A DNA stretch of 13,151 nucleotides, from IMG/VR virus record IMGVR_UViG_3300029305_004468. One strand, 5' to 3'. The position numbers and the translations under genes are program-made. Source of the stretch: a virus (taxonomy: Duplodnaviria > Heunggongvirae > Uroviricota > Caudoviricetes). Of this stretch, positions 206 through 12,558 are shown piece after piece (position 1 is the first letter of the stretch; every line of letters starts with the position of its first letter). The notes under the pieces are model-generated. The model was not told the origin of the DNA and did no database searches. It worked only from the letters and a program-made list of their open reading frames with translations.

Positions 206-281
206 TGGTTGCGGAGGCAGGTAATGCTCCTGCTGTCTCGAGCCTATGAAACTCGCGAGATAACTTTTTCTCTACTCCACA
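206..281 (-). tRNA. tRNA with CAT anticodon (Met, or Ile2 if lysidine-modified); atypical D and T loops
   Basis: 76-nt cloverleaf: acceptor TGTGGAG/CTCCGCA, D stem GAGA/TCTC, anticodon arm CGAGT-TTCATAG-GCTCG, T arm GCAGG-AGCATTA-CCTGC, encoded A-CCA end. Confidence 0.85.
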
Positions 282-339
282 ATACAATCAAGGCTTCACT
301 TCGATCACATATGAATGAAGATCGCCTCATGAACAATAA

Positions 340-423
340 TGGTGCGCCGGGAGGGACTTGAACCCCCACGCCATAAGCATTCGAGCTTAAATCGAATGTG
401 TCTGCCTATTCCACCACCAGCGC
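340..423 (-). tRNA. trnL: tRNA-Leu(TAA)
   Basis: 84 nt: acceptor GCGCTGG/CCGGCGC, anticodon arm TTCGA-TTTAAGC-TCGAA, long variable arm, GGTTCAAGTCC T arm, encoded ACCA. Confidence 0.95.
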
Positions 424-539
424 ATAATGTCCAACGCTCCGAAAAGACCCCATCTGCAGCTGGTACACTTTTTGCGAAAAGTCCAGTAAAGTAATGAGCT
501 GAACCAGAACGAACGCAAACATAGTGAGTTGGACTCATC

Positions 540-615
540 TGGAGGGCAGGGTGGGGGTCGAACCCACGACCTCGACCTTAACAGGGTCTCGCTACTACCG
601 CTGAGCTACCTACCC
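540..615 (-). tRNA. trnN: tRNA-Asn(GTT)
   Basis: 76 nt: acceptor GGGTAGG/CCTGCCC, anticodon loop CTGTTAA, T arm GTGGG-TTCGACC-CCCAC, T-CCA end. Confidence 0.92.
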
Positions 616-2804: not shown

Positions 2805-3602
2805 CTAATCGCAATAAATAATCTCATTTTCTTGTTGATTTTTAAGTCTTTTTCGACGTTTCTTCTCCCTATCTCTGCGTTTTTCTTCTTCATGCTGGCA
2901 CACATCACAACGTTTTTTGTTTCTAATAGACTTAGGCACTACAAACAACTTCCCACAATCTTTACAACTTACAATACGCTCATCTGGCTTACGGGCTCTC
3001 TCAAGGAAGCAACTGTCGCAATATTTGTGAGCGTTTGCTCTCGGTATAAATCGTGAACCACATTTCTTGCAGTAAGTTTCACGCGGATTTATTCGATGTT
3101 TTAAATTTTTAAGCATAATCTCACCAAAGCAACCCCATAGGAGCATTTTAGCTTCAGTGTCTTTATTATATAAATACTGTATAAGCATATCCGCGGTATC
3201 TTCTTCTGAATGTCCGAACTTCATCAAATCTGCTTTAACATCTGCGATAATATACGGAACATTGTCTTGATGTTTTTCGTCCGCATCCTCGTTATTAATA
3301 CGATTATGATAAGTCATACTCAGCTCGTCATACTTATCAAATAGGGCAGAGTCTATCAAACCACAATCAGGATTAGTCATAAATTTATGATAATCAAATC
3401 CATCCATGTATCTAAAGTTGAGCTGTTTTTTCTTTACTATACTGCGAATCTTATTAACTAAGGATTTGTTGATGTTGACAACTTGGTTTTTCTCATAGCC
3501 TTTAGCTTCCGTAAAGAAATAAGGCATTTTAGCTTTAGTGTATTTTCTTATAAGGGCGTCGGCCCAATCTGGTCGTTCTGGTTTGTACAAAGTTTTTGCA
3601 TA
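2805..3602 (-). CDS. yonO: YonO-like RNA polymerase, exon 2 (265 aa, C-terminal double zinc ribbon)
   Basis: Frame is open from TAT at 3602 (YAKTLYKPERPDWAD...). It joins exon 1 in frame to give NNFTID|YAKT. No SD precedes the tracked TTG at 3590. Confidence 0.85.
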   Translation of the reverse strand, partial: YAKTLYKPERPDWADALIRKYTKAKMPYFFTEAKGYEKNQVVNINKSLVNKIRSIVKKKQLNFRYMDGFDYHKFMTNPDCGLIDSALFDKYDELSMTYHNRINNEDADEKHQDNVPYIIADVKADLMKFGHSEEDTADMLIQYLYNKDTEAKMLLWGCFGEIMLKNLKHRINPRETYCKKCGSRFIPRANAHKYCDSCFLERARKPDERIVSCKDCGKLFVVPKSIRNKKRCDVCQHEEEKRRDREKKRRKRLKNQQENEIIYCD

Positions 3603-4534
3603 CCTTAATACCCTCGGTTTCCCGATATTTATTAGGGGAGTAGACTATATCATCTTCCCAGTAGGAAGGGTGGCGCTTCGCGATACGGAATTTCACCGTA
3701 AAGCTACTCCTTTCGGATAGTCGTTGCAGGTCGAGATTGTTTGTTGTTTTTATAAATAACCAAATACCCATCCTTTATGAGTTTTGTTTTTTCCATGAAG
3801 AACTCTATCTATACATTTTCTTGAAAATCCATTTTTCTCAGAAAAATCTTTTATATTAGTAAATTCTACATATTCACCGGTTGCTAAATTTCTCCCCCAG
3901 CATGATTTCTGTCCTGCGCGTCGACAATTTTCTGAAAACGTAATCCATTCGCAATTTTCAGGACAGTAATCTTTTTGAGGGTCTATTCTTTCTATAGTTA
4001 ATCCTTCTCTATATCCGTTCTTTTTTGCCCAATTGGAGAAATTAATATAGGTATGCCATTCGGGACATACTTTTATGCCTTTTCCTCCATATCGGCTATA
4101 ACATTCAATTTTACTGTTGTAGCATCTATTTTTCATATTGACCCACGTTTGATACAGTTTTGTTTTTCTTTCTCCATGTATCAAATGCTTTTCTCGGATA
4201 ACTTCTTTATGTAGACATCCACAAGATCTTGTCATGCCGCTTTTCATTCGCTTTTCGTTGATTGCTTTTATATTGCCACAATCACATTGACATAACCAAT
4301 AGCGACCTTGATTCTTGTCAGTATGCGAAAATTTTAAAACTTTCAATTTTCCATACTTATTACCTGTTAAATCTTTAATCTTATACTCCTTGTCTAAACA
4401 ATCTCTTTCCCACAGGATTCCCATACAAAACATTTGCTTAGGGTTTCCTGTTAGCACGGTTTCCCGCACACCCGGCATTTACCGGTTCACCACCTTATCA
4501 CTTATATATTGCTATATAAGGCGACCTATAATTG
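3603..4534 (-). mobile_element. Group I intron (932 nt; likely subgroup IA2) in the RNA polymerase gene
   Basis: 5' exon ends in U (GAT, 4535) and the intron ends in G (3603). P1 CGAUC/GGUCG with U.G at the splice site; P2 CTTATATA-GCAA-TATATAAG (4501-4520); P3 GGTGGTG/CGCCACC; P7 GACTA (3722-3718)/TAGTC (3647-3643); P7.1 TCCGAAAGGA; P9 TCGG-GAAA-CCGA. A 10-bp stem GAGATTGTTT (4405-4396)/AAACAATCTC (3742-3733) encloses the ORF. Confidence 0.92.
3750..4379 (-). CDS. Intron-encoded HNH-type homing endonuclease with a C-terminal NUMOD1-like HTH (about 209 aa from ATT)
   Basis: DLTGNKYGKL..WLCQCDCG..SCGC, YGGKGIKVCPEW, LTIERIDPQKDYCPENCEWIT, then a C-terminal HTH-like segment. The tracked ATG at 4478 lies in the ribozyme core, whereas SD AAGGAG sits 6 nt before ATT at 4379. 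Confidence 0.85.
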   Translation of the reverse strand: MKDLTGNKYGKLKVLKFSHTDKNQGRYWLCQCDCGNIKAINEKRMKSGMTRSCGCLHKEVIREKHLIHGERKTKLYQTWVNMKNRCYNSKIECYSRYGGKGIKVCPEWHTYINFSNWAKKNGYREGLTIERIDPQKDYCPENCEWITFSENCRRAGQKSCWGRNLATGEYVEFTNIKDFSEKNGFSRKCIDRVLHGKNKTHKGWVFGYL

Positions 4535-6601
4535 ATCGATAGTAAAATTATTTTCCATACATAGCAGTTTAACTGCCAATATTTCTTCTTCACCAACTTC
4601 TTTGCCTACATTCCAGATTTTCGTAATGTCGTTACTTATCGTACCTATATTTCCGCCCGACCAAGCCATGAGCATTCCTGCATAGAATTGTTCGTTATCA
4701 AGAATAACGGACTCGGCTTTTTTCATGTCATAATAAAGCGGCACTATGTCTTGCATATTTCTTTCAGCCACTTCAACTATAGTTTTATCAGCGACGATTA
4801 GTAAAATGTCACCGTCACAATCGAACTGGAGAAGCTTTGATATGTTGTCGAAACAGCTTGTATAAATTGCATCTGTCTGGAACCATTCACTCGTCGTCTC
4901 ATTTACGACATTCTTTCTTACTGCATGTTCTCTATATAGATGCGGCGAACGCAAGCAATCTAATTTTTCGACCCTATCATATAATCTGCAGGATACTTCT
5001 CCGTCTTTTAACAACCCCGGCGGGTTGTCCATATGTAAAAACCAACTCTGACATACGGCATACAAATCAGGAATTACAAACGCATACTTACATTTTGTCG
5101 GCAATTTGCCAGAATAATATTTCCTAATCATGCTGTTTTTAATATCATTCAGTTTACGTTTGCAGTATTTATCGCTCAACATTTCAGGGTAGAGGAGAAG
5201 CGCCTCTTGAAACGGCGTAAGATTTCTGCCTTTTACTGCCCCGAATGCATCAAGCATAGAACTAACACTTGAAGTTAGCTTGTCTATTTTATTTATTGCT
5301 GGCGTAGCAATCTTAATAAGCTCTTCGTCTGTGATATCTGTCAGCGTCTGTAAAATTTGATAGCTCAGCTGAGAATTCTTGACCGTGTCTTCTTCCTCTT
5401 TGCACGTACCAGCTTGACAATTATACTGCTTAAAGAAATCTTTATACTCTTTCCAACTATCGTAGTACTTGCTCATCTTAAATTGCGATTTTGTAAAGAT
5501 AATCTGTATGTCTTCCGCGATAACATCGTGTTCGACTCCATAGATGTCAGTTATTACCGGACTCGCTTCGTGTTCTTCAATAAACCTCACATAGTCAAAA
5601 CTGCAAAGGAGGCCTTTAATCCACGGCGCTCTAACCATAAAGTTCTTTTCACTGACGCTCGGCAGCATTAAACCACATCCATCTGTGTGTTCGATATTGA
5701 TATCCATTTCCTGCCGCGTCACTTCATATGTCACGTCATCGATAAAATCTACAGTACCATGAACTGCCGTTTCAAAATCCGGCACCACAATACAACGGTC
5801 GATGTCAAAATCCTTCCATTCATCTGTTGCGCTATTTGACAATGCAAGATATGCAAGAAATTTGTTGACATTTACGCCACCTTGAGCGTTTATGCTGTCG
5901 ACAGTTAATCCGCACATGAGAGTTTTCTCATGCTGTTCCCACAATGATTCTTTAATAAATACTGTCTTTTTCGTTCTTATCTGGCCGGCCGATGCCGTAA
6001 AGAATCGATATTTTTCGCCATTATGTATAAATCCGTTCACTATAATGTCCTGCATTACATCATAATAGAATGTTCTGACAACGATTATATCTTCGGACAA
6101 TTCATCCTGCCCGATGCCGAGAGTACGGGTCAATGTTGACTCAAATACCGATATAATATTCTTTTCATCGATTGCACTAGGGGCTAATCGTCTGATGCAT
6201 TTATTATCCGTTGTCTGATTATATTCGACTGCCTGAGCGAGTCTCATTTTCAATTCGGCCTTTAATTCATTTATATATTTAGTTTTATAAGACTTCCAAT
6301 ACGATAACTCTACAAATCTCTCATTGATAGCGACCAATTTTGAGATTTGCTCTACGGTGTAACATTCTCCGCATTCTGCAAAAAAATATTCAAGCCTACC
6401 CATATGCTTTCTGCACAGGTCGGCCTGCTCTTTATCTGCTATTATTCCATCCACCTCAATCTTGAGATGATCCAGCAGTTTATTTATTTGTTTCTTTTCA
6501 CTGATGAACTTATTCATCTTCCAGTGGACATAACGTTCTCGGTTTTTATAGAATGCTCCCGTATCAACACTATAAATATGAATTTGGCGGTCTAAACTTA
6601 T
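4535..6601 (-). CDS. yonO: YonO-like single-subunit RNA polymerase (double-psi beta-barrel, related to eukaryotic RdRPs), exon 1; spliced product about 954 aa from ATA 6601 or 926 aa from ATG 6517
   Basis: TDGCG motif, QFKM, LRSPHL, catalytic QFDCDGD, GNIG..SN..TKIWN. Gene order RNAP-phosphoesterase-HU resembles SPbeta. The frame is open 28 codons upstream of ATG 6517 to an ATA with SD AAAGGCGGTGA. Confidence 0.88.
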
Positions 6602-6639: not shown

Positions 6640-6897
6640 TCAGTCTTTTAAATCTTCATTATCTGTCAAGAAGCTATATAAAAGTAAAGCTTCATCTTCT
6701 TCATAGGTTGGGTGCTGTATTAAAAAATCACGCACTGCATCATAACTGTCAGGATGAAAATCTGTCAGTAACGCAATGTATGCTGCAATTAAAGTTCTCA
6801 AAATAATATAATCTTCTTTTGTGTTCAGCGGCCCAAGCCCATACAGTGCTCCATGAACTATCTCTATAGCCTGGAGAAAAGTTTTTTCGTTAATCAT
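6640..6897 (-). CDS. Hypothetical protein (85 aa)
   Basis: TAATG overlap with the upstream gene; protein-like helical composition. Confidence 0.75.
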   Translation of the reverse strand: MINEKTFLQAIEIVHGALYGLGPLNTKEDYIILRTLIAAYIALLTDFHPDSYDAVRDFLIQHPTYEEDEALLLYSFLTDNEDLKD

Positions 6898-7682: not shown

Positions 7683-8465
7683 TTAATCTCCTTTATTTGT
7701 GTGGGTTTTAATATATTTAACATACGCTCGAGCGCCGTATTCCAATTCAGCCTTGTAATCTGGAGAATTCTGAAGCACATAAATCGTATCTAAATTTAAA
7801 AATGCTTCTAATCCGGCGACACTGGTTCTCATAGCATTAAGTTTTCTAGTTTTTATAAGAGACAATTCTTCTTCGAGACGTGTCAGTGAATTAATCGCAG
7901 TGGGTTTAGACGTTGCCGCAGCTTCTGCAAGTTTATTTTGGCTAAAATGCCAATACATAGGATGATCTTCTATCGTCTGAGATTTTCCTCTTTGGTTAAT
8001 ATGTGATTTGATGAACAGATACAAAAACAAATCGAGGACTCTGTTTGAACTGTCAGTATCGACTATAAGTTTTCTATATTCATTAACTTCAAGCTTTGTA
8101 AATGTCTCTGCTAAAATTGGTGTGCCGTTAGATTTGTATTTTTCAATAGGAATTCCGGCGTATAGATTTCGAATTGTAAATACTTGGTTAAATCTAAATT
8201 CTTCGAGCTGTCCTTCTGGCAACTTTATATATTCTTTTTCTTCGAGCCATTTTAAAGCTGCAATAATATCTTTCATACGATTTGATTCTTTCCATGTGGT
8301 GCGATACTTATTGCCGCTGGCTTCAAGCAGCTCACCAAGAGTAATTCGTATTTCATCTAGAAGGCAATTATGTGTCATTATATATACGAAACAAAAGAGA
8401 ATAGCCTTCTTATTTTCGCTCTGATTAGTAAAAAAACTGTCTGGAACTGTTATGTATTTTGACAA
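7683..8465 (-). CDS. Winged-helix DNA-binding protein, possibly replication-initiator-like (two HTH-like segments)
   Basis: ITLGELLEASG..MKDIIAALKWLEEKEYI and FSQNKLAEAAATSKPTAINSLTRLEEELSLI look like wHTH units; SD AAGGAG, TTG start. Function is inferred. Confidence 0.6.
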   Translation of the reverse strand: MSKYITVPDSFFTNQSENKKAILFCFVYIMTHNCLLDEIRITLGELLEASGNKYRTTWKESNRMKDIIAALKWLEEKEYIKLPEGQLEEFRFNQVFTIRNLYAGIPIEKYKSNGTPILAETFTKLEVNEYRKLIVDTDSSNRVLDLFLYLFIKSHINQRGKSQTIEDHPMYWHFSQNKLAEAAATSKPTAINSLTRLEEELSLIKTRKLNAMRTSVAGLEAFLNLDTIYVLQNSPDYKAELEYGARAYVKYIKTHTNKGD

Positions 8466-8912: not shown

Positions 8913-9698
8913 TCAGCACGTTGTTGGCGGCAAAGCCGGCTTGGGTTTTACGGTAAGTCCAAGTTCTATAAACGCGTCGCGTAAGATATCCATAAAAGCG
9001 TCTCTTACTTTCCTTTCTGAGTAGATGAACTCCAGCGTAGACATATCGAGCAGTTTGCGGGCTCCTTCTTTATCGTCCTCTGCAAGTCTTGCGCTGACTC
9101 TGGTATCTTTGATATCGCTGATGCTAAATCCGTGTGCGTCTGTAAAGATGCGGTAGAGACGGCATAGTACTGCGGCGGTATCTTTAAGTTCGAGCTTATC
9201 TCGCAGTGTTTCGAGCGGCTTATTTATGCTCTGGGCCCATTCCCAGTATGTACCTACTTCAAGTATTTTACGTATTGAGCGGCGGTAGAAACCAGCTGGG
9301 CGTTCTTCGTATTGCTGTGGTGCCGCATTTTGAGCCTCTTCTACAGCCTTTTGTCCAAGTAGGAAGTAGGATGTCACAAGAGTGTCTTGTATTTGCCATG
9401 CTAAGTCGTCAGTGAATGATTTTACAAGCAATAAATATCCACGCTGCGTGATAAGATAAACCTTTTCCGGTAATCCGCCTTGTGGTCTTTCAAAACCAAG
9501 AGTGCGCATCTCAGACGGCTCAGAAATCAAATAGAAATGTGTGTCTTTTAAAAATCTTTCTTTGTTAGCGTTGAAATTTCTTCGCGCGGTTCCTTCCGGT
9601 CTCCGATGTACTTCATCAATTTCTCTCAGCGTAATAACGCGCTGTCCGTTATATTCTCTGATAGGGAGTTCATATCCCTGTACTGTTAATGTTTGCAT
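8913..9698 (-). CDS. ORF6N-domain phage protein (antirepressor-like DNA-binding protein)
   Basis: REYNGQRVITLREIDEVHRRPEGTARRNFNANKERF...YLITQRGYLLLVKSFTDDLAWQIQDTLVTSYF matches the ORF6N pattern; SD AAAAGGAG. Confidence 0.85.
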   Translation of the reverse strand: MQTLTVQGYELPIREYNGQRVITLREIDEVHRRPEGTARRNFNANKERFLKDTHFYLISEPSEMRTLGFERPQGGLPEKVYLITQRGYLLLVKSFTDDLAWQIQDTLVTSYFLLGQKAVEEAQNAAPQQYEERPAGFYRRSIRKILEVGTYWEWAQSINKPLETLRDKLELKDTAAVLCRLYRIFTDAHGFSISDIKDTRVSARLAEDDKEGARKLLDMSTLEFIYSERKVRDAFMDILRDAFIELGLTVKPKPALPPTTC

Positions 9699-9809
9699 AA
9701 TCTCTAAATCTCCTTTTCTCGGGCGCCTTATTTTTCCGCCCCGTGTTTCTGCAGTAGTTGTTTTATTGTTGACTTATACCAGTGCTCGGCTCTGTTGGTC
9801 GCTCGTTCA

Positions 9810-10064
9810 TTATCTGTTACCCTCTAAAAACGCAAGTAAATCTGACACTGTAGGCATGCTCACGTCATCTTCCACTGTGAATTTCAATGAAGCTATAGCG
9901 TCTGTTGTAAGTGTAGAAAAAATGTTGTGAGAAATCATAATATGTTTGATATCGTCATAGTTAAGGTAGTATTCGTCGTCTTCTAAGTAAAGACTTTCAG
10001 GAATCTGCTCTATAGAACCTATACCGGGTAATCTGAAAGTGAAAACATTATTGTTAGTTGGCAT
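9810..10064 (-). CDS. Array member 6: hypothetical protein with the shared C-terminal motif (VSMPTVSDLLAFLEG)
   Basis: 84 aa, SD GGAGAGG inside the end of the upstream gene. Confidence 0.85.
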   Translation of the reverse strand: MPTNNNVFTFRLPGIGSIEQIPESLYLEDDEYYLNYDDIKHIMISHNIFSTLTTDAIASLKFTVEDDVSMPTVSDLLAFLEGNR

Positions 10065-10065
10065 A

Positions 10066-10308
10066 TTATTTTTCCTCTCCGTTTAAGAATTTCAGCAATT
10101 CTGCGGGTTCCGGCATTTTCAATGACTCGGACTTTTTCGCGGGCTTTTTAAAAGATGAGCCAAATAGAGCTTCGGCGGCGCTGTAATCTATTGTAAAAGC
10201 TGTTTCTCCTAGTGTCGTATAGCCCGATCTGGGTCTTCTAAACGTGTATTCATACGTGCCCCCTGAAGGTGTGGCGAAAGTTGTAGTGTATAGTGTATAT
10301 GGTGTCAT
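10066..10308 (-). CDS. Array member 5: hypothetical protein with the shared C-terminal motif (LKMPEPAELLKFLNG)
   Basis: 80 aa, TAATG overlap, SD AAAGGAG. Confidence 0.85.
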   Translation of the reverse strand: MTPYTLYTTTFATPSGGTYEYTFRRPRSGYTTLGETAFTIDYSAAEALFGSSFKKPAKKSESLKMPEPAELLKFLNGEEK

Positions 10309-10733
10309 TATTTATCTCCTTTGTTTAAAAAATTTAGCAATTCTGTTTCTGACGGCATTTTTACCTTGTTGTGATCAATGTCCTGGACTATTTGCATGAC
10401 TGTTTTGCTGAAAGTTTTAAAATCATCAATAGTCAAAGTAATCATATCGCTGCGAGGAACTCTGTGGGCTTTTATACGAGTCATATTTTCAAAAGACCAT
10501 CGATTGTCTTTTGCAATTCTTAAGAATTGTTCAAACACAGCTACAGCATTTTCATATTTCATAATGCCGATTTTTTCTACTTGAAATATGACTTTATAAT
10601 CGTCTATGTTTTTAGTGACATGACCACCAAATGGGGCATAGAGCAGTAGTTCTTTGCCAGCTATTCGATTTATTATGGTAACTGCCAAGCTTATTAGGCG
10701 AACAGGTGTTTCTTTCAGTGTTTTCATTTTCAT
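10308..10733 (-). CDS. Array member 4: hypothetical protein with the shared C-terminal motif (VKMPSETELLNFLNKG)
   Basis: 141 aa, ATGA overlap with the upstream gene. Confidence 0.85.
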   Translation of the reverse strand: MKMKTLKETPVRLISLAVTIINRIAGKELLLYAPFGGHVTKNIDDYKVIFQVEKIGIMKYENAVAVFEQFLRIAKDNRWSFENMTRIKAHRVPRSDMITLTIDDFKTFSKTVMQIVQDIDHNKVKMPSETELLNFLNKGDK

Positions 10734-11098
10734 TTGCTGACCTCGCGTGTTGTGATGCCGTAGTTAAGAAAGTCCAGCAGTTCGGAGCGGGTCGGTATCT
10801 TTACTGAAGATAAGTGATAATATATAAGTCCCTCGCGGGCAATCTGTTTGAGGAATTTATGCACGTTTACGATGCTGTATCGTATAAAGCGAAGATCTCC
10901 TTCTCGCTCTTCGATGCAAATTCCCCACTGCGTTAAATTTGCCATACTGGTTGGCAGTGGCTCCATGTTTGCGAAGCTTTTACTTATCTCATAAGCTACT
11001 GCCTCGTCGATATCACAGGCAGGCCAGTTAATGTAGACGTGTATATAATTACCGTCTACAATGTCTTTACGTATGAGAAATGTTGTCGGTTGGTTCAT
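10730..11098 (-). CDS. Array member 3: hypothetical protein with the shared C-terminal motif (VKIPTRSELLDFLNYG)
   Basis: 122 aa, ATGA overlap, SD AAGGAG. Confidence 0.85.
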   Translation of the reverse strand: MNQPTTFLIRKDIVDGNYIHVYINWPACDIDEAVAYEISKSFANMEPLPTSMANLTQWGICIEEREGDLRFIRYSIVNVHKFLKQIAREGLIYYHLSSVKIPTRSELLDFLNYGITTREVSK

Positions 11099-11466
11099 AT
11101 ATTGGTCTCCTTGTTTAAAAAGTCTAATAATTGTATAGGGGACGGCAATTCAATATTTGGCCCAATGTCCCATTTGTGGTTCGTCTGCATTTTATATATG
11201 AAATAATCGGCATCTTCGATTCTGAAAAATATATCGCATTGATTTCCCGTCTTATGTGTACCAAGAAGTCTAATACCGTCCAGTTCAGAAATTCCATCGC
11301 TTATCCATATTGAGAAATTGCCAAAATTAAAATTGAAAAAATTAGATATTAAATTACGAAATTCATCCGTATTGTATTTCCAATCATAAAAGAAATGATA
11401 GTGTTTGCCATAACGAAGCGTATGAATGTGCATGCATGTTTCTGAAGGTTTAGTTTTGTATATCAT
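11095..11466 (-). CDS. Array member 2: hypothetical protein with the shared C-terminal motif (IELPSPIQLLDFLNK)
   Basis: 123 aa, 17-nt overlap with the upstream gene, SD AAAGGAG. Confidence 0.85.
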   Translation of the reverse strand: MIYKTKPSETCMHIHTLRYGKHYHFFYDWKYNTDEFRNLISNFFNFNFGNFSIWISDGISELDGIRLLGTHKTGNQCDIFFRIEDADYFIYKMQTNHKWDIGPNIELPSPIQLLDFLNKETNI

Positions 11467-11821
11467 TAATTTCTCCTTTGTTTAAAAAATCTAGTAACTG
11501 GTCTGGGGTCGGCAGAGTTATATCAGAGATGTGAAGAGGCGGTATTGATAATCTTTCGATAAGCAGGTCAGGTTTTAACACATCTAAGATTATTTCGCCG
11601 CCAAAATTAGAGCTAACAAGTCTCAACCCCCACTTTGAAAGATCTCTGCGAAAAGGAAGTTCATTCAAATTGGCAAACTTTTTGGTTACAAATGTTAAAA
11701 AGCCTTCTAGGTACATTCTTGATTTTGTATCTTTGAAAGTGGATATTGTGGGCCAGTATAGAACTATTCGCATGTCATGACGCGGTGCCCATGTATATAG
11801 TGTTTGATTTCTATCTGTCAT
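11450..11821 (-). CDS. Array member 1: hypothetical protein with the shared C-terminal motif (ITLPTPDQLLDFLNKG)
   Basis: 123 aa, SD GGGGGT, 11 nt after the recombinase stop. Confidence 0.85.
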   Translation of the reverse strand: MTDRNQTLYTWAPRHDMRIVLYWPTISTFKDTKSRMYLEGFLTFVTKKFANLNELPFRRDLSKWGLRLVSSNFGGEIILDVLKPDLLIERLSIPPLHISDITLPTPDQLLDFLNKGEINDIQN

Positions 11822-11832
11822 TTAATTACCCC

Positions 11833-12558
11833 CTATAAGACCGCCTGAGCTAAGTCCGCCCTGTAGTGGTCGATTACATCCTGCGTCTGGCCGCAATAAG
11901 CTAGCGTAGTCTTAAAGTCGTTGTGATTCAGCATTTTCTGCAGGGCAAATTTGACGTCGTCGTCATTAGGGTTACGCTGCAGGAGCTGATATGCAAATGT
12001 TTTTCGCAGTGAGTGAGTGCTGATGTGGCCCGGAACATTGCAGGCCTTAGATGCGTCTTTAAGAATAGTAGTAAGTTGCTGGAGAGTTAATGATTTGCGG
12101 TTGCCGTCCTTGTTGCGCTTTTGACTGGCAAACAATGGATCGTCGAGGCTGTATTCCGGCAGTGTGTCCAGATAGTCCTTAAGAAGCTGCTGTATTTCCG
12201 GTGTTAGTGCCGGATTATTGAATTTGCGCGTCTTTGCCTCAATAAGGTCGCAGTGTGACTTGAATGTGCCGTCCGGCTTAAGTACGTGATGTATGCGCAG
12301 GTTAAGCAGGTCGCTGGCTCTGAGGCCGAACAGAATACCCACAGTAAAGAGGGTATAGTTTCTGAGACTGCCTTTAGATAGGTAGTATTCCTGCATGGCG
12401 CGTATATGGGCAGGGTCTCTAATCGGGTCTGCCGCGGTCGCTTTCGGAACTCCGTTTGATTTGTATAGGCTGGTAGAGCGGCGCTGCTCTGGCGCGCGAA
12501 AGTCTACTTCTATAATATTGTTTGGCACGATTAATGCCTGTGCTAGGTTGTTTTTCAT
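11833..12558 (-). CDS. Tyrosine recombinase, essentially catalytic domain only (241 aa)
   Basis: Catalytic residues all present: GLRASDL (R), EAKTRK (K), THSLRKT (HxxR), MLNH (H), TTLAY (Y); N-terminal DPIRD motif; SD AAAGGGGAG. Confidence 0.93.
   Translation of the reverse strand: MKNNLAQALIVPNNIIEVDFRAPEQRRSTSLYKSNGVPKATAADPIRDPAHIRAMQEYYLSKGSLRNYTLFTVGILFGLRASDLLNLRIHHVLKPDGTFKSHCDLIEAKTRKFNNPALTPEIQQLLKDYLDTLPEYSLDDPLFASQKRNKDGNRKSLTLQQLTTILKDASKACNVPGHISTHSLRKTFAYQLLQRNPNDDDVKFALQKMLNHNDFKTTLAYCGQTQDVIDHYRADLAQAVL

Follow-up and report, generated by a model that had tools for sequence, protein, structure and literature searches.

Why should six small proteins encoded side by side, most of them dissimilar in sequence, end in the same short peptide? 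The question is raised by a stretch of 13,151 nt of Caudoviricetes DNA (IMG/VR record IMGVR_UViG_3300029305_004468; this whole stretch, as analysed here, is called the window), in which the minus strand from 9810 to 12558 forms a tight operon made up of a tyrosine recombinase gene followed by six small genes, g1 to g6. Downstream of g6 lie an ORF6N antirepressor-like gene, several genes of unknown function and then a single-chain RNA polymerase of the YonO type, with 51% identity to the YonO of SPbeta. This polymerase, together with the operon context, identifies the element as an SPbeta-like phage, and its host context is that of animal-gut Clostridia. The analysis reported here establishes that the shared peptide, referred to as the tag, is conserved as a peptide in lineages related to the window phage, and suggests that it may act as a docking handle.

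The six open reading frames (ORFs) were found on the minus strand where a sequence-only reading of the window had placed them: g1 at 11450-11821 (123 aa), g2 at 11095-11466 (123 aa), g3 at 10730-11098 (122 aa), g4 at 10308-10733 (141 aa), g5 at 10066-10308 (80 aa) and g6 at 9810-10064 (84 aa). Each gene has its own Shine-Dalgarno site and the neighbouring starts and stops abut or overlap, with g2 overlapping the tail of g1 by 17 nt, which indicates translational coupling; g6 closes the series, with no coupled gene after it. The common C-terminal motif, [VIL]x[LIM]-P-x-x-x-[EDQ]-L-L-x-F-L-[NE], aligns without gaps in the six proteins, leaves 3-10 residues before the stop and has P, LL and FL invariant, as the sequence-only reading had stated. 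Its codons occupy positions 11480-11521 in g1, 11113-11154 in g2, 10763-10804 in g3, 10323-10364 in g4, 10081-10122 in g5, where they come after a Lys/Pro/Ser-rich linker, and 9822-9863 in g6.

The claim that selection acts on the peptide was borne out by the codons. Pairwise identity in the 14-codon block of the six genes was 0.56, 0.81 and 0.43 at codon positions 1, 2 and 3, respectively, different codons were used in 39 of the 75 pairs at the five invariant residues, and the synonymous Leu codons listed by the sequence-only reading were correct. The junction DNA is only 54% identical; a shared inverted repeat was not found at the junctions and RNAalifold returned 0 pairs for RNA structure there. 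Moreover, a g3 orthologue (P0002, 65% identical) has retained P, ELL and FLN with the variable positions altered. The codon-position profile, the synonymous codons, the P0002 pattern and the junction data, therefore, show that the constraint acts on the peptide. Past the FL, the residues (KGE, KE, KGD, GEE) are largely a translation of the AAAGGAG-type ribosome-binding site that serves the next gene, which accounts for their Gly/Glu/Lys bias.

A position-specific scoring matrix (PSSM) was generated from 24 tags. Counting from the Phe of FL as position 0, which is F in 24/24, position +1 is L or I, positions -2 and -3 are aliphatic in all 24, position -4 is E/D/Q in 21/24 and position -7 is T/S/N in 21/24; P stands at -8 in 13 of the 24 tags and otherwise at -9 to -13 or much farther upstream. 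The distance from FL to the C-terminus is 0-11 residues, and one protein terminates exactly at ...DFL. This profile is that of a predicted helix-capping box followed by a two-turn hydrophobic face, so that the earlier description of the tag as a Pro-capped amphipathic helix agrees with both the capping pattern (P, T/S/N at -7, E/D at -4) and the isolated helix of an AlphaFold2 model described below. True tags scored at least 15.3 bits. About 280 fetched loci supplied about 22,000 stop-to-stop ORF tails for comparison, and the best non-tag tail in this set reached 13.3 bits, the sole exception being a protein of the locus L051. A chance origin of the motif is excluded.

The uniqueness of the tag among the proteins of the window also holds by PSSM score. 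A conserved 85-aa helical protein encoded just upstream of the YonO gene (6640-6897, minus strand; p85) ends in ...LLLYSFLTD..., a loosely tag-like acidic helix of the form L-[YF]-x-[FY]-L, and it scored only 1.4 bits. Members of the p85 family in general do not resemble the tag (1.4 to -2.6 bits); the L051 member is the exception mentioned above. This homologue (L051:7497-7778) ends in ...CPSADELYEFLFS and scored 19.5 bits, though the L051 phage has no tagged array. We regard the resemblance of the p85 tail in L051 as a lead.

Loci around recombinase orthologues were drawn from Logan and ENA assemblies, IMG/VR, JGI metagenomes and GTDB genomes. Tagged genes lie downstream of the recombinase in all sequenced lineages in which it is at least 57% identical to that of the window (nine others). 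At 70% identity there are three tagged genes in L041 and at least two in L042; at 66% there is one in L043/L044/L047/L048; at 63% there are five in L045/L046; at 60% there are six in L049, five to six in L211, three in L108/L209/L210 and one in L001/L208; and at 57% there is one in L212. The first tagged gene begins at or just past the recombinase stop in eight of these nine lineages, and in L001 two untagged genes intervene. No tagged genes were found downstream of recombinases at 54% identity or below (L050, L051, L052, L054 and about 200 more loci), nor at 23 YonO loci of other SPbeta-like phages. SPbeta, whose protein tails were scanned together with all fetched loci, has a different gene order and no analogous array by annotation. 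By this distribution among the sequenced loci, the tag marks one phage clade. The same array was found on about 15 metagenome contigs; the sequencing runs carrying it are DNA runs from animal feces or gut, with no RNA run among the public ones, and a blastn search against a phage collection gave no match.

Tag-like ends were also observed away from the array. The 115-kb record behind L001 (G001) has a second region, on the other strand, where a protein ending in ..DDVMSFLENCK (19.1 bits) adjoins a reverse transcriptase gene, two proteins end in ..TLINFL and ..SLCSFL, a 245-aa protein ends in ..CLINFL and a member of phrog_7488 ends in ..MLMKFLV; the label therefore also occurs outside the recombinase-adjacent array. 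This cluster of FL ends (G001:C1:103802-109174, minus strand; L106) stands beside the reverse transcriptase gene, at 107468-108784 (RVT_1, 4e-19), and a metallophosphoesterase gene. In a relative outside the clade (G008), 506 ORFs were scored and no tail exceeded 7 bits. When IMG/VR was searched with a DNA pattern for MPTxxELLxFL, nine matches were obtained, none of them in the tagged clade: those in L199 and L202 fall on an internal beta-strand/helix junction of a RuvC-like protein, the one in L204 is in an open frame just after a Met, and the remaining ones are out of frame.

In contrast to the tag, the bodies that carry it vary widely. The 24 tagged proteins span 66-168 aa and fall into 21 BLAST groups, and among the six proteins of the window a resemblance without the tag was detected only between the paralogues g1 and g3. 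Alignments with more members revealed a W...F.N core common to g1, g2, g3 and one protein each from L049 and L211. The sequence-only reading had described the bodies as variable payload domains; the diversity stands, and the bodies are not all unrelated, as g1, g2 and g3 are distant paralogues. Pfam returned nothing at E ≤ 1 for the six tagged proteins, and PHROG, NCBIfam and PADLOC searches of the tagged proteins returned rows at chance level only (E 0.03-0.28), well short of the cut-offs, in agreement with the earlier impression that the motif belongs to no named family. A word-based search of 5.8 billion proteins retrieved only the query itself and one 65% orthologue, and HMMER, run exhaustively with a g1/g3 profile over 1.84 billion representatives, retrieved only proteins of the same lineage and two spurious repeat proteins. 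No description of such a tag was found in the literature, where a search with the peptide string gave only word noise. A natural variant of g1 in L026 (1464-1739) has a stop after residue 91 and thus no tag, with the remaining array unchanged; it is a separate 91-aa database protein, P0004. As for g4, its protein-language features (Atlas) come nearest to clusters of minimal nucleotidyltransferases (score 0.93), with only 131 of 256 features in common, and Pfam was negative, so that a minimal nucleotidyltransferase-like body is a weak lead only.

An AlphaFold2 model of g3 built from six sequences reached a pLDDT of 77 and a pTM of 0.64, while an earlier one from three sequences (pLDDT 51) was too poor to use. 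The predicted body has the order beta-beta-alpha-(short alpha)-beta-beta-alpha and is followed by a linker at residues 92-99 with pLDDT below 50, beyond which the tag is predicted as a separate helix at residues 104-113. A fold search with this model gave no significant match: the top PDB hit had E 0.41, and the top AFDB cluster had E 0.055 at a TM below 0.35.

The constant neighbour of the array is the small tyrosine recombinase (11833-12558, minus strand, 241 aa), the first gene of the operon, which is upstream of tagged genes in every tagged lineage. It matches Pfam Phage_integrase (4e-17, residues 61-222), phrog_216 (3e-34) and XerA (5hxy, 5.7e-5), and consists of the catalytic domain only, without a core-binding domain. 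More than 100 orthologues were found, and R80, K109, H182, R185, H212 and Y221 are invariant in 47 of them. Phages of Streptococcus, Bacillus, Clostridium and Listeria commonly encode short relatives of about 200 aa. A likeness of the tag to the C-terminal helix of the recombinase itself was considered and rejected (-3.7 bits), and a complex prediction from a 47-row recombinase alignment and 24 rows of tag tails gave a score of 0.02, which counts neither for nor against binding.

A gain or loss of exactly one cassette was seen in one pair of phages. L041 and L042 have an identical recombinase protein, and L041 lacks 393 nt that correspond to one cassette body. In L042 the tags on either side both align with one 34-nt stretch of tag codons, and this places the crossover within the M-P-T-E codons; the tag and the ribosome-binding site thus constitute a working cassette boundary. 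The indel could be caused by short-homology recombination or by the neighbouring recombinase, and we favour short homology because there is no DNA-level conservation of the junctions across lineages. The clade-wide occurrence of the tag, always downstream of the small recombinase, the origin of the residues after FL, this breakpoint in the tag codons and the paralogy of g1-g3 were all absent from the sequence-only reading.

Judging from the sequences, the tag most likely is a docking or address handle by which one putative reader binds all these proteins, a role to which we give about an even chance. The six genes would form a cassette-like array of fast-evolving early accessory proteins, each consisting of its own small body, a flexible linker and a C-terminal linear motif of 10-11 residues, P-[TS]-x-x-[ED]-L-[LM]-x-F-L, and this motif would fold into an N-capped helix with a single hydrophobic face of L, L/M, F and L. 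We infer that one candidate reader, of phage or host origin, would bind all the different bodies alike through the tag. Recombination at the boundary of tag and ribosome-binding site would add or remove cassettes and would explain why unrelated bodies have the same tag. A more ambitious version, with a rather low probability in our estimate, is a swappable 'payload plus address' system in which unrelated early effectors would share one docking helix and one reader, a host hub or a phage protein, and new payloads would enter through recombination at the boundary of tag and ribosome-binding site, beside the recombinase. Such a role would find a parallel in the cargo-loading peptides of encapsulins and similar C-terminal targeting peptides, which also are conserved C-terminal peptides past a linker on unrelated cargo proteins encoded by neighbouring genes; however, neither a shell gene nor another gene for a reader was recognised next to the array, whose constant neighbour is the tyrosine recombinase.

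Some observations weigh against the docking role. The bodies are almost without homologues, so that they may have diverged past recognition from one ancestor, and g1-g3 and two proteins of other lineages are indeed distant relatives. The association with the recombinase may just reflect the shared ancestry of one clade, as recombinases that are 42-54% identical have no tagged genes downstream. Furthermore, the helix N-cap pattern is a common one, as exemplified by an internal MPTPQELLKFL in the RuvC-like phage protein; the signal therefore lies in the position and recurrence of the motif and not in the pattern itself. A comparison of gene presence and absence between G001 and G007 on one side and G008 on the other, in search of a clade-specific reader, yielded too many and too noisy candidates.

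Shared ancestry is also the core of an alternative to which we assign a low, still appreciable probability: one old, fast-diverging family of tandemly duplicated paralogues, whose C-terminal helix would be the part of a common fold under the strongest constraint, or would mediate homo- or hetero-oligomerisation, rather than being read by a separate partner. In favour of this, the genes lie in tandem, g1-g3 are distant paralogues whose family recurs in L049 and L211, and small phage proteins lose sequence similarity fast. Against this, the lengths of the tagged proteins are spread over more than a hundred residues (66-168 aa), 21 of the 24 bodies have no similarity at E ≤ 1e-3, a low-confidence linker parts the helix from the body in g3, the only usable model, and tag-like ends are found also on the phrog_7488 member and on the 245-aa protein of G001. 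An obligatory hetero-oligomer is ruled out by the lineages with a single tagged gene, such as L043 and L212. An improbable alternative is that the tag would be a turnover signal for a host AAA+ protease or adaptor, keeping the early proteins short-lived. This would suit a hydrophobic motif that always lies 0-11 residues from the C-terminus on an exposed linker, in early accessory genes next to the lysis-lysogeny region, but known C-terminal degrons of the ssrA type usually require the extreme C-terminus, and up to 11 variable residues follow the FL of the tag. The junctions might also be DNA sites of the adjacent tyrosine recombinase, with integron-like cassettes and the peptide as a by-product. 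A recombinase with invariant catalytic residues is upstream in each tagged lineage, cassette number and content vary, and one indel crossover is inside the tag codons; as in integrons (IntI and attC), a tyrosine recombinase lies by an array whose genes are small, variable and promoterless and have conserved 3′ boundaries, and the cassette content differs between close relatives. The boundary of the array is, however, conserved as a peptide and not as DNA or a hairpin: third codon positions are the least conserved (0.43) in junctions of 54% DNA identity, between lineages the amino acids are kept and the DNA is not, and there is no common inverted repeat or hairpin, attC-like inverted repeats or hairpins with conserved core sites not having been found at the cassette ends. 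In addition, the recombinase is co-oriented with the array as its first gene and is much smaller than IntI-type enzymes, and short-homology recombination explains the crossover equally well, all of which makes the DNA-site explanation very unlikely.

Two further possibilities come from known terminal peptides. The sequence-only reading had included among its options a capsid-loading or ejection signal, a C-terminal counterpart of the capsid-targeting sequence of T4 internal proteins, and for this the one argument is an analogy, namely that variable small proteins have a terminal peptide in common. The T4 signal is likewise a short peptide common to otherwise different small phage proteins, read by one partner as is proposed for the tag, but it is N-terminal, is cleaved and belongs to late virion proteins, whereas the tag is C-terminal, has no protease-site pattern and no likeness to the T4 sequence. 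Because the tagged genes are in an early operon with an antirepressor, replication-type genes and YonO, and not among virion genes, we hold a capsid-loading role to be very unlikely. The tag could, instead, mimic a host hub peptide, such as the C-terminal peptide of FtsZ ([DK]-I-P-x-F-L), the clamp-binding motif or the tail of the single-stranded DNA-binding protein (SSB), and in this way bring the payloads to hub partners. These hub-binding peptides (SSB DDDIPF, clamp QL[SD]LF, FtsZ) resemble the tag in being short acidic-hydrophobic motifs that stand near the C-terminus on a flexible linker, and through them many proteins reach a single partner, as might also hold for the tag; there is a loose likeness to the FtsZ tails of Lachnospiraceae (...SLKIPDFLRSK), and another early protein in the relative L043 ends in DDSDIPF, similar to an SSB tail. 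Their sequence rules are not followed by the tag, however, and they belong to cellular replication and division proteins rather than to the accessory proteins of one phage clade. On the tag matrix the FtsZ tails of five Lachnospiraceae genomes scored only -6 to -14 bits, and the tag has neither the Pro at -2 nor the basic residue after FL of the FtsZ peptide. The clamp motifs QL[SD]LF and QLxLx[LF] are absent, the fourth position being polar and Q in only two of the 24 tags, and the tag is not at a free C-terminus as SSB tails are, having 0-11 further residues and no P-F end. Mimicry of these hub peptides is thus scarcely probable.

The L043 protein with the SSB-like end is encoded at L043:6683-7597 on the plus strand (also at L047:3859-4773) and is 304 aa long. 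Its terminal ...DDSDIPF suggests that it may recruit SSB partner proteins. The gene has the same operon position as a 260-aa ORF of the window (7683-8465), to which no tblastn similarity was found. In the window, the ATG overlapping the g6 stop (TAATG) opens a 15-codon ORF (9764-9811, minus strand), and no coupled gene of normal size is present between g6 and the antirepressor-like gene. The latter (8913-9698, minus strand) matches Pfam ORF6N (9.6e-15) and PHROG anti-repressor families. The YonO-like RNA polymerase gene (2805-6517, minus strand) is split. A 663-aa ORF at 4526-6517 ends where the YonO of SPbeta goes on, a NUMOD/HNH-type endonuclease ORF at 3750-4478 lies between the two parts, and the ORF at 2805-3590 is matched by the C-terminal portion of proteins of the YonO type (phrog_8308, positions 649-842 of 847) as well as by the 3′ end of the unsplit YonO genes of relatives. 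This layout is compatible with an intron that carries a homing endonuclease. At its low end (206-615, minus strand) the window has three tRNA genes, Met-CAT, Leu-TAA and Asn-GTT, which adjoin a gene for an HU-like protein (720-995).

The shared peptide tag lets small early phage genes of unknown function be studied jointly, and the motif provides a simple rule for finding the accessory gene set of this phage clade, while the cassette indel shows how such sets get reshuffled. Naming the reader of the tag would name the cellular process targeted by the whole set of early proteins. Should the reader prove to be a host hub, the tag would serve in Clostridia as a compact and portable targeting peptide.

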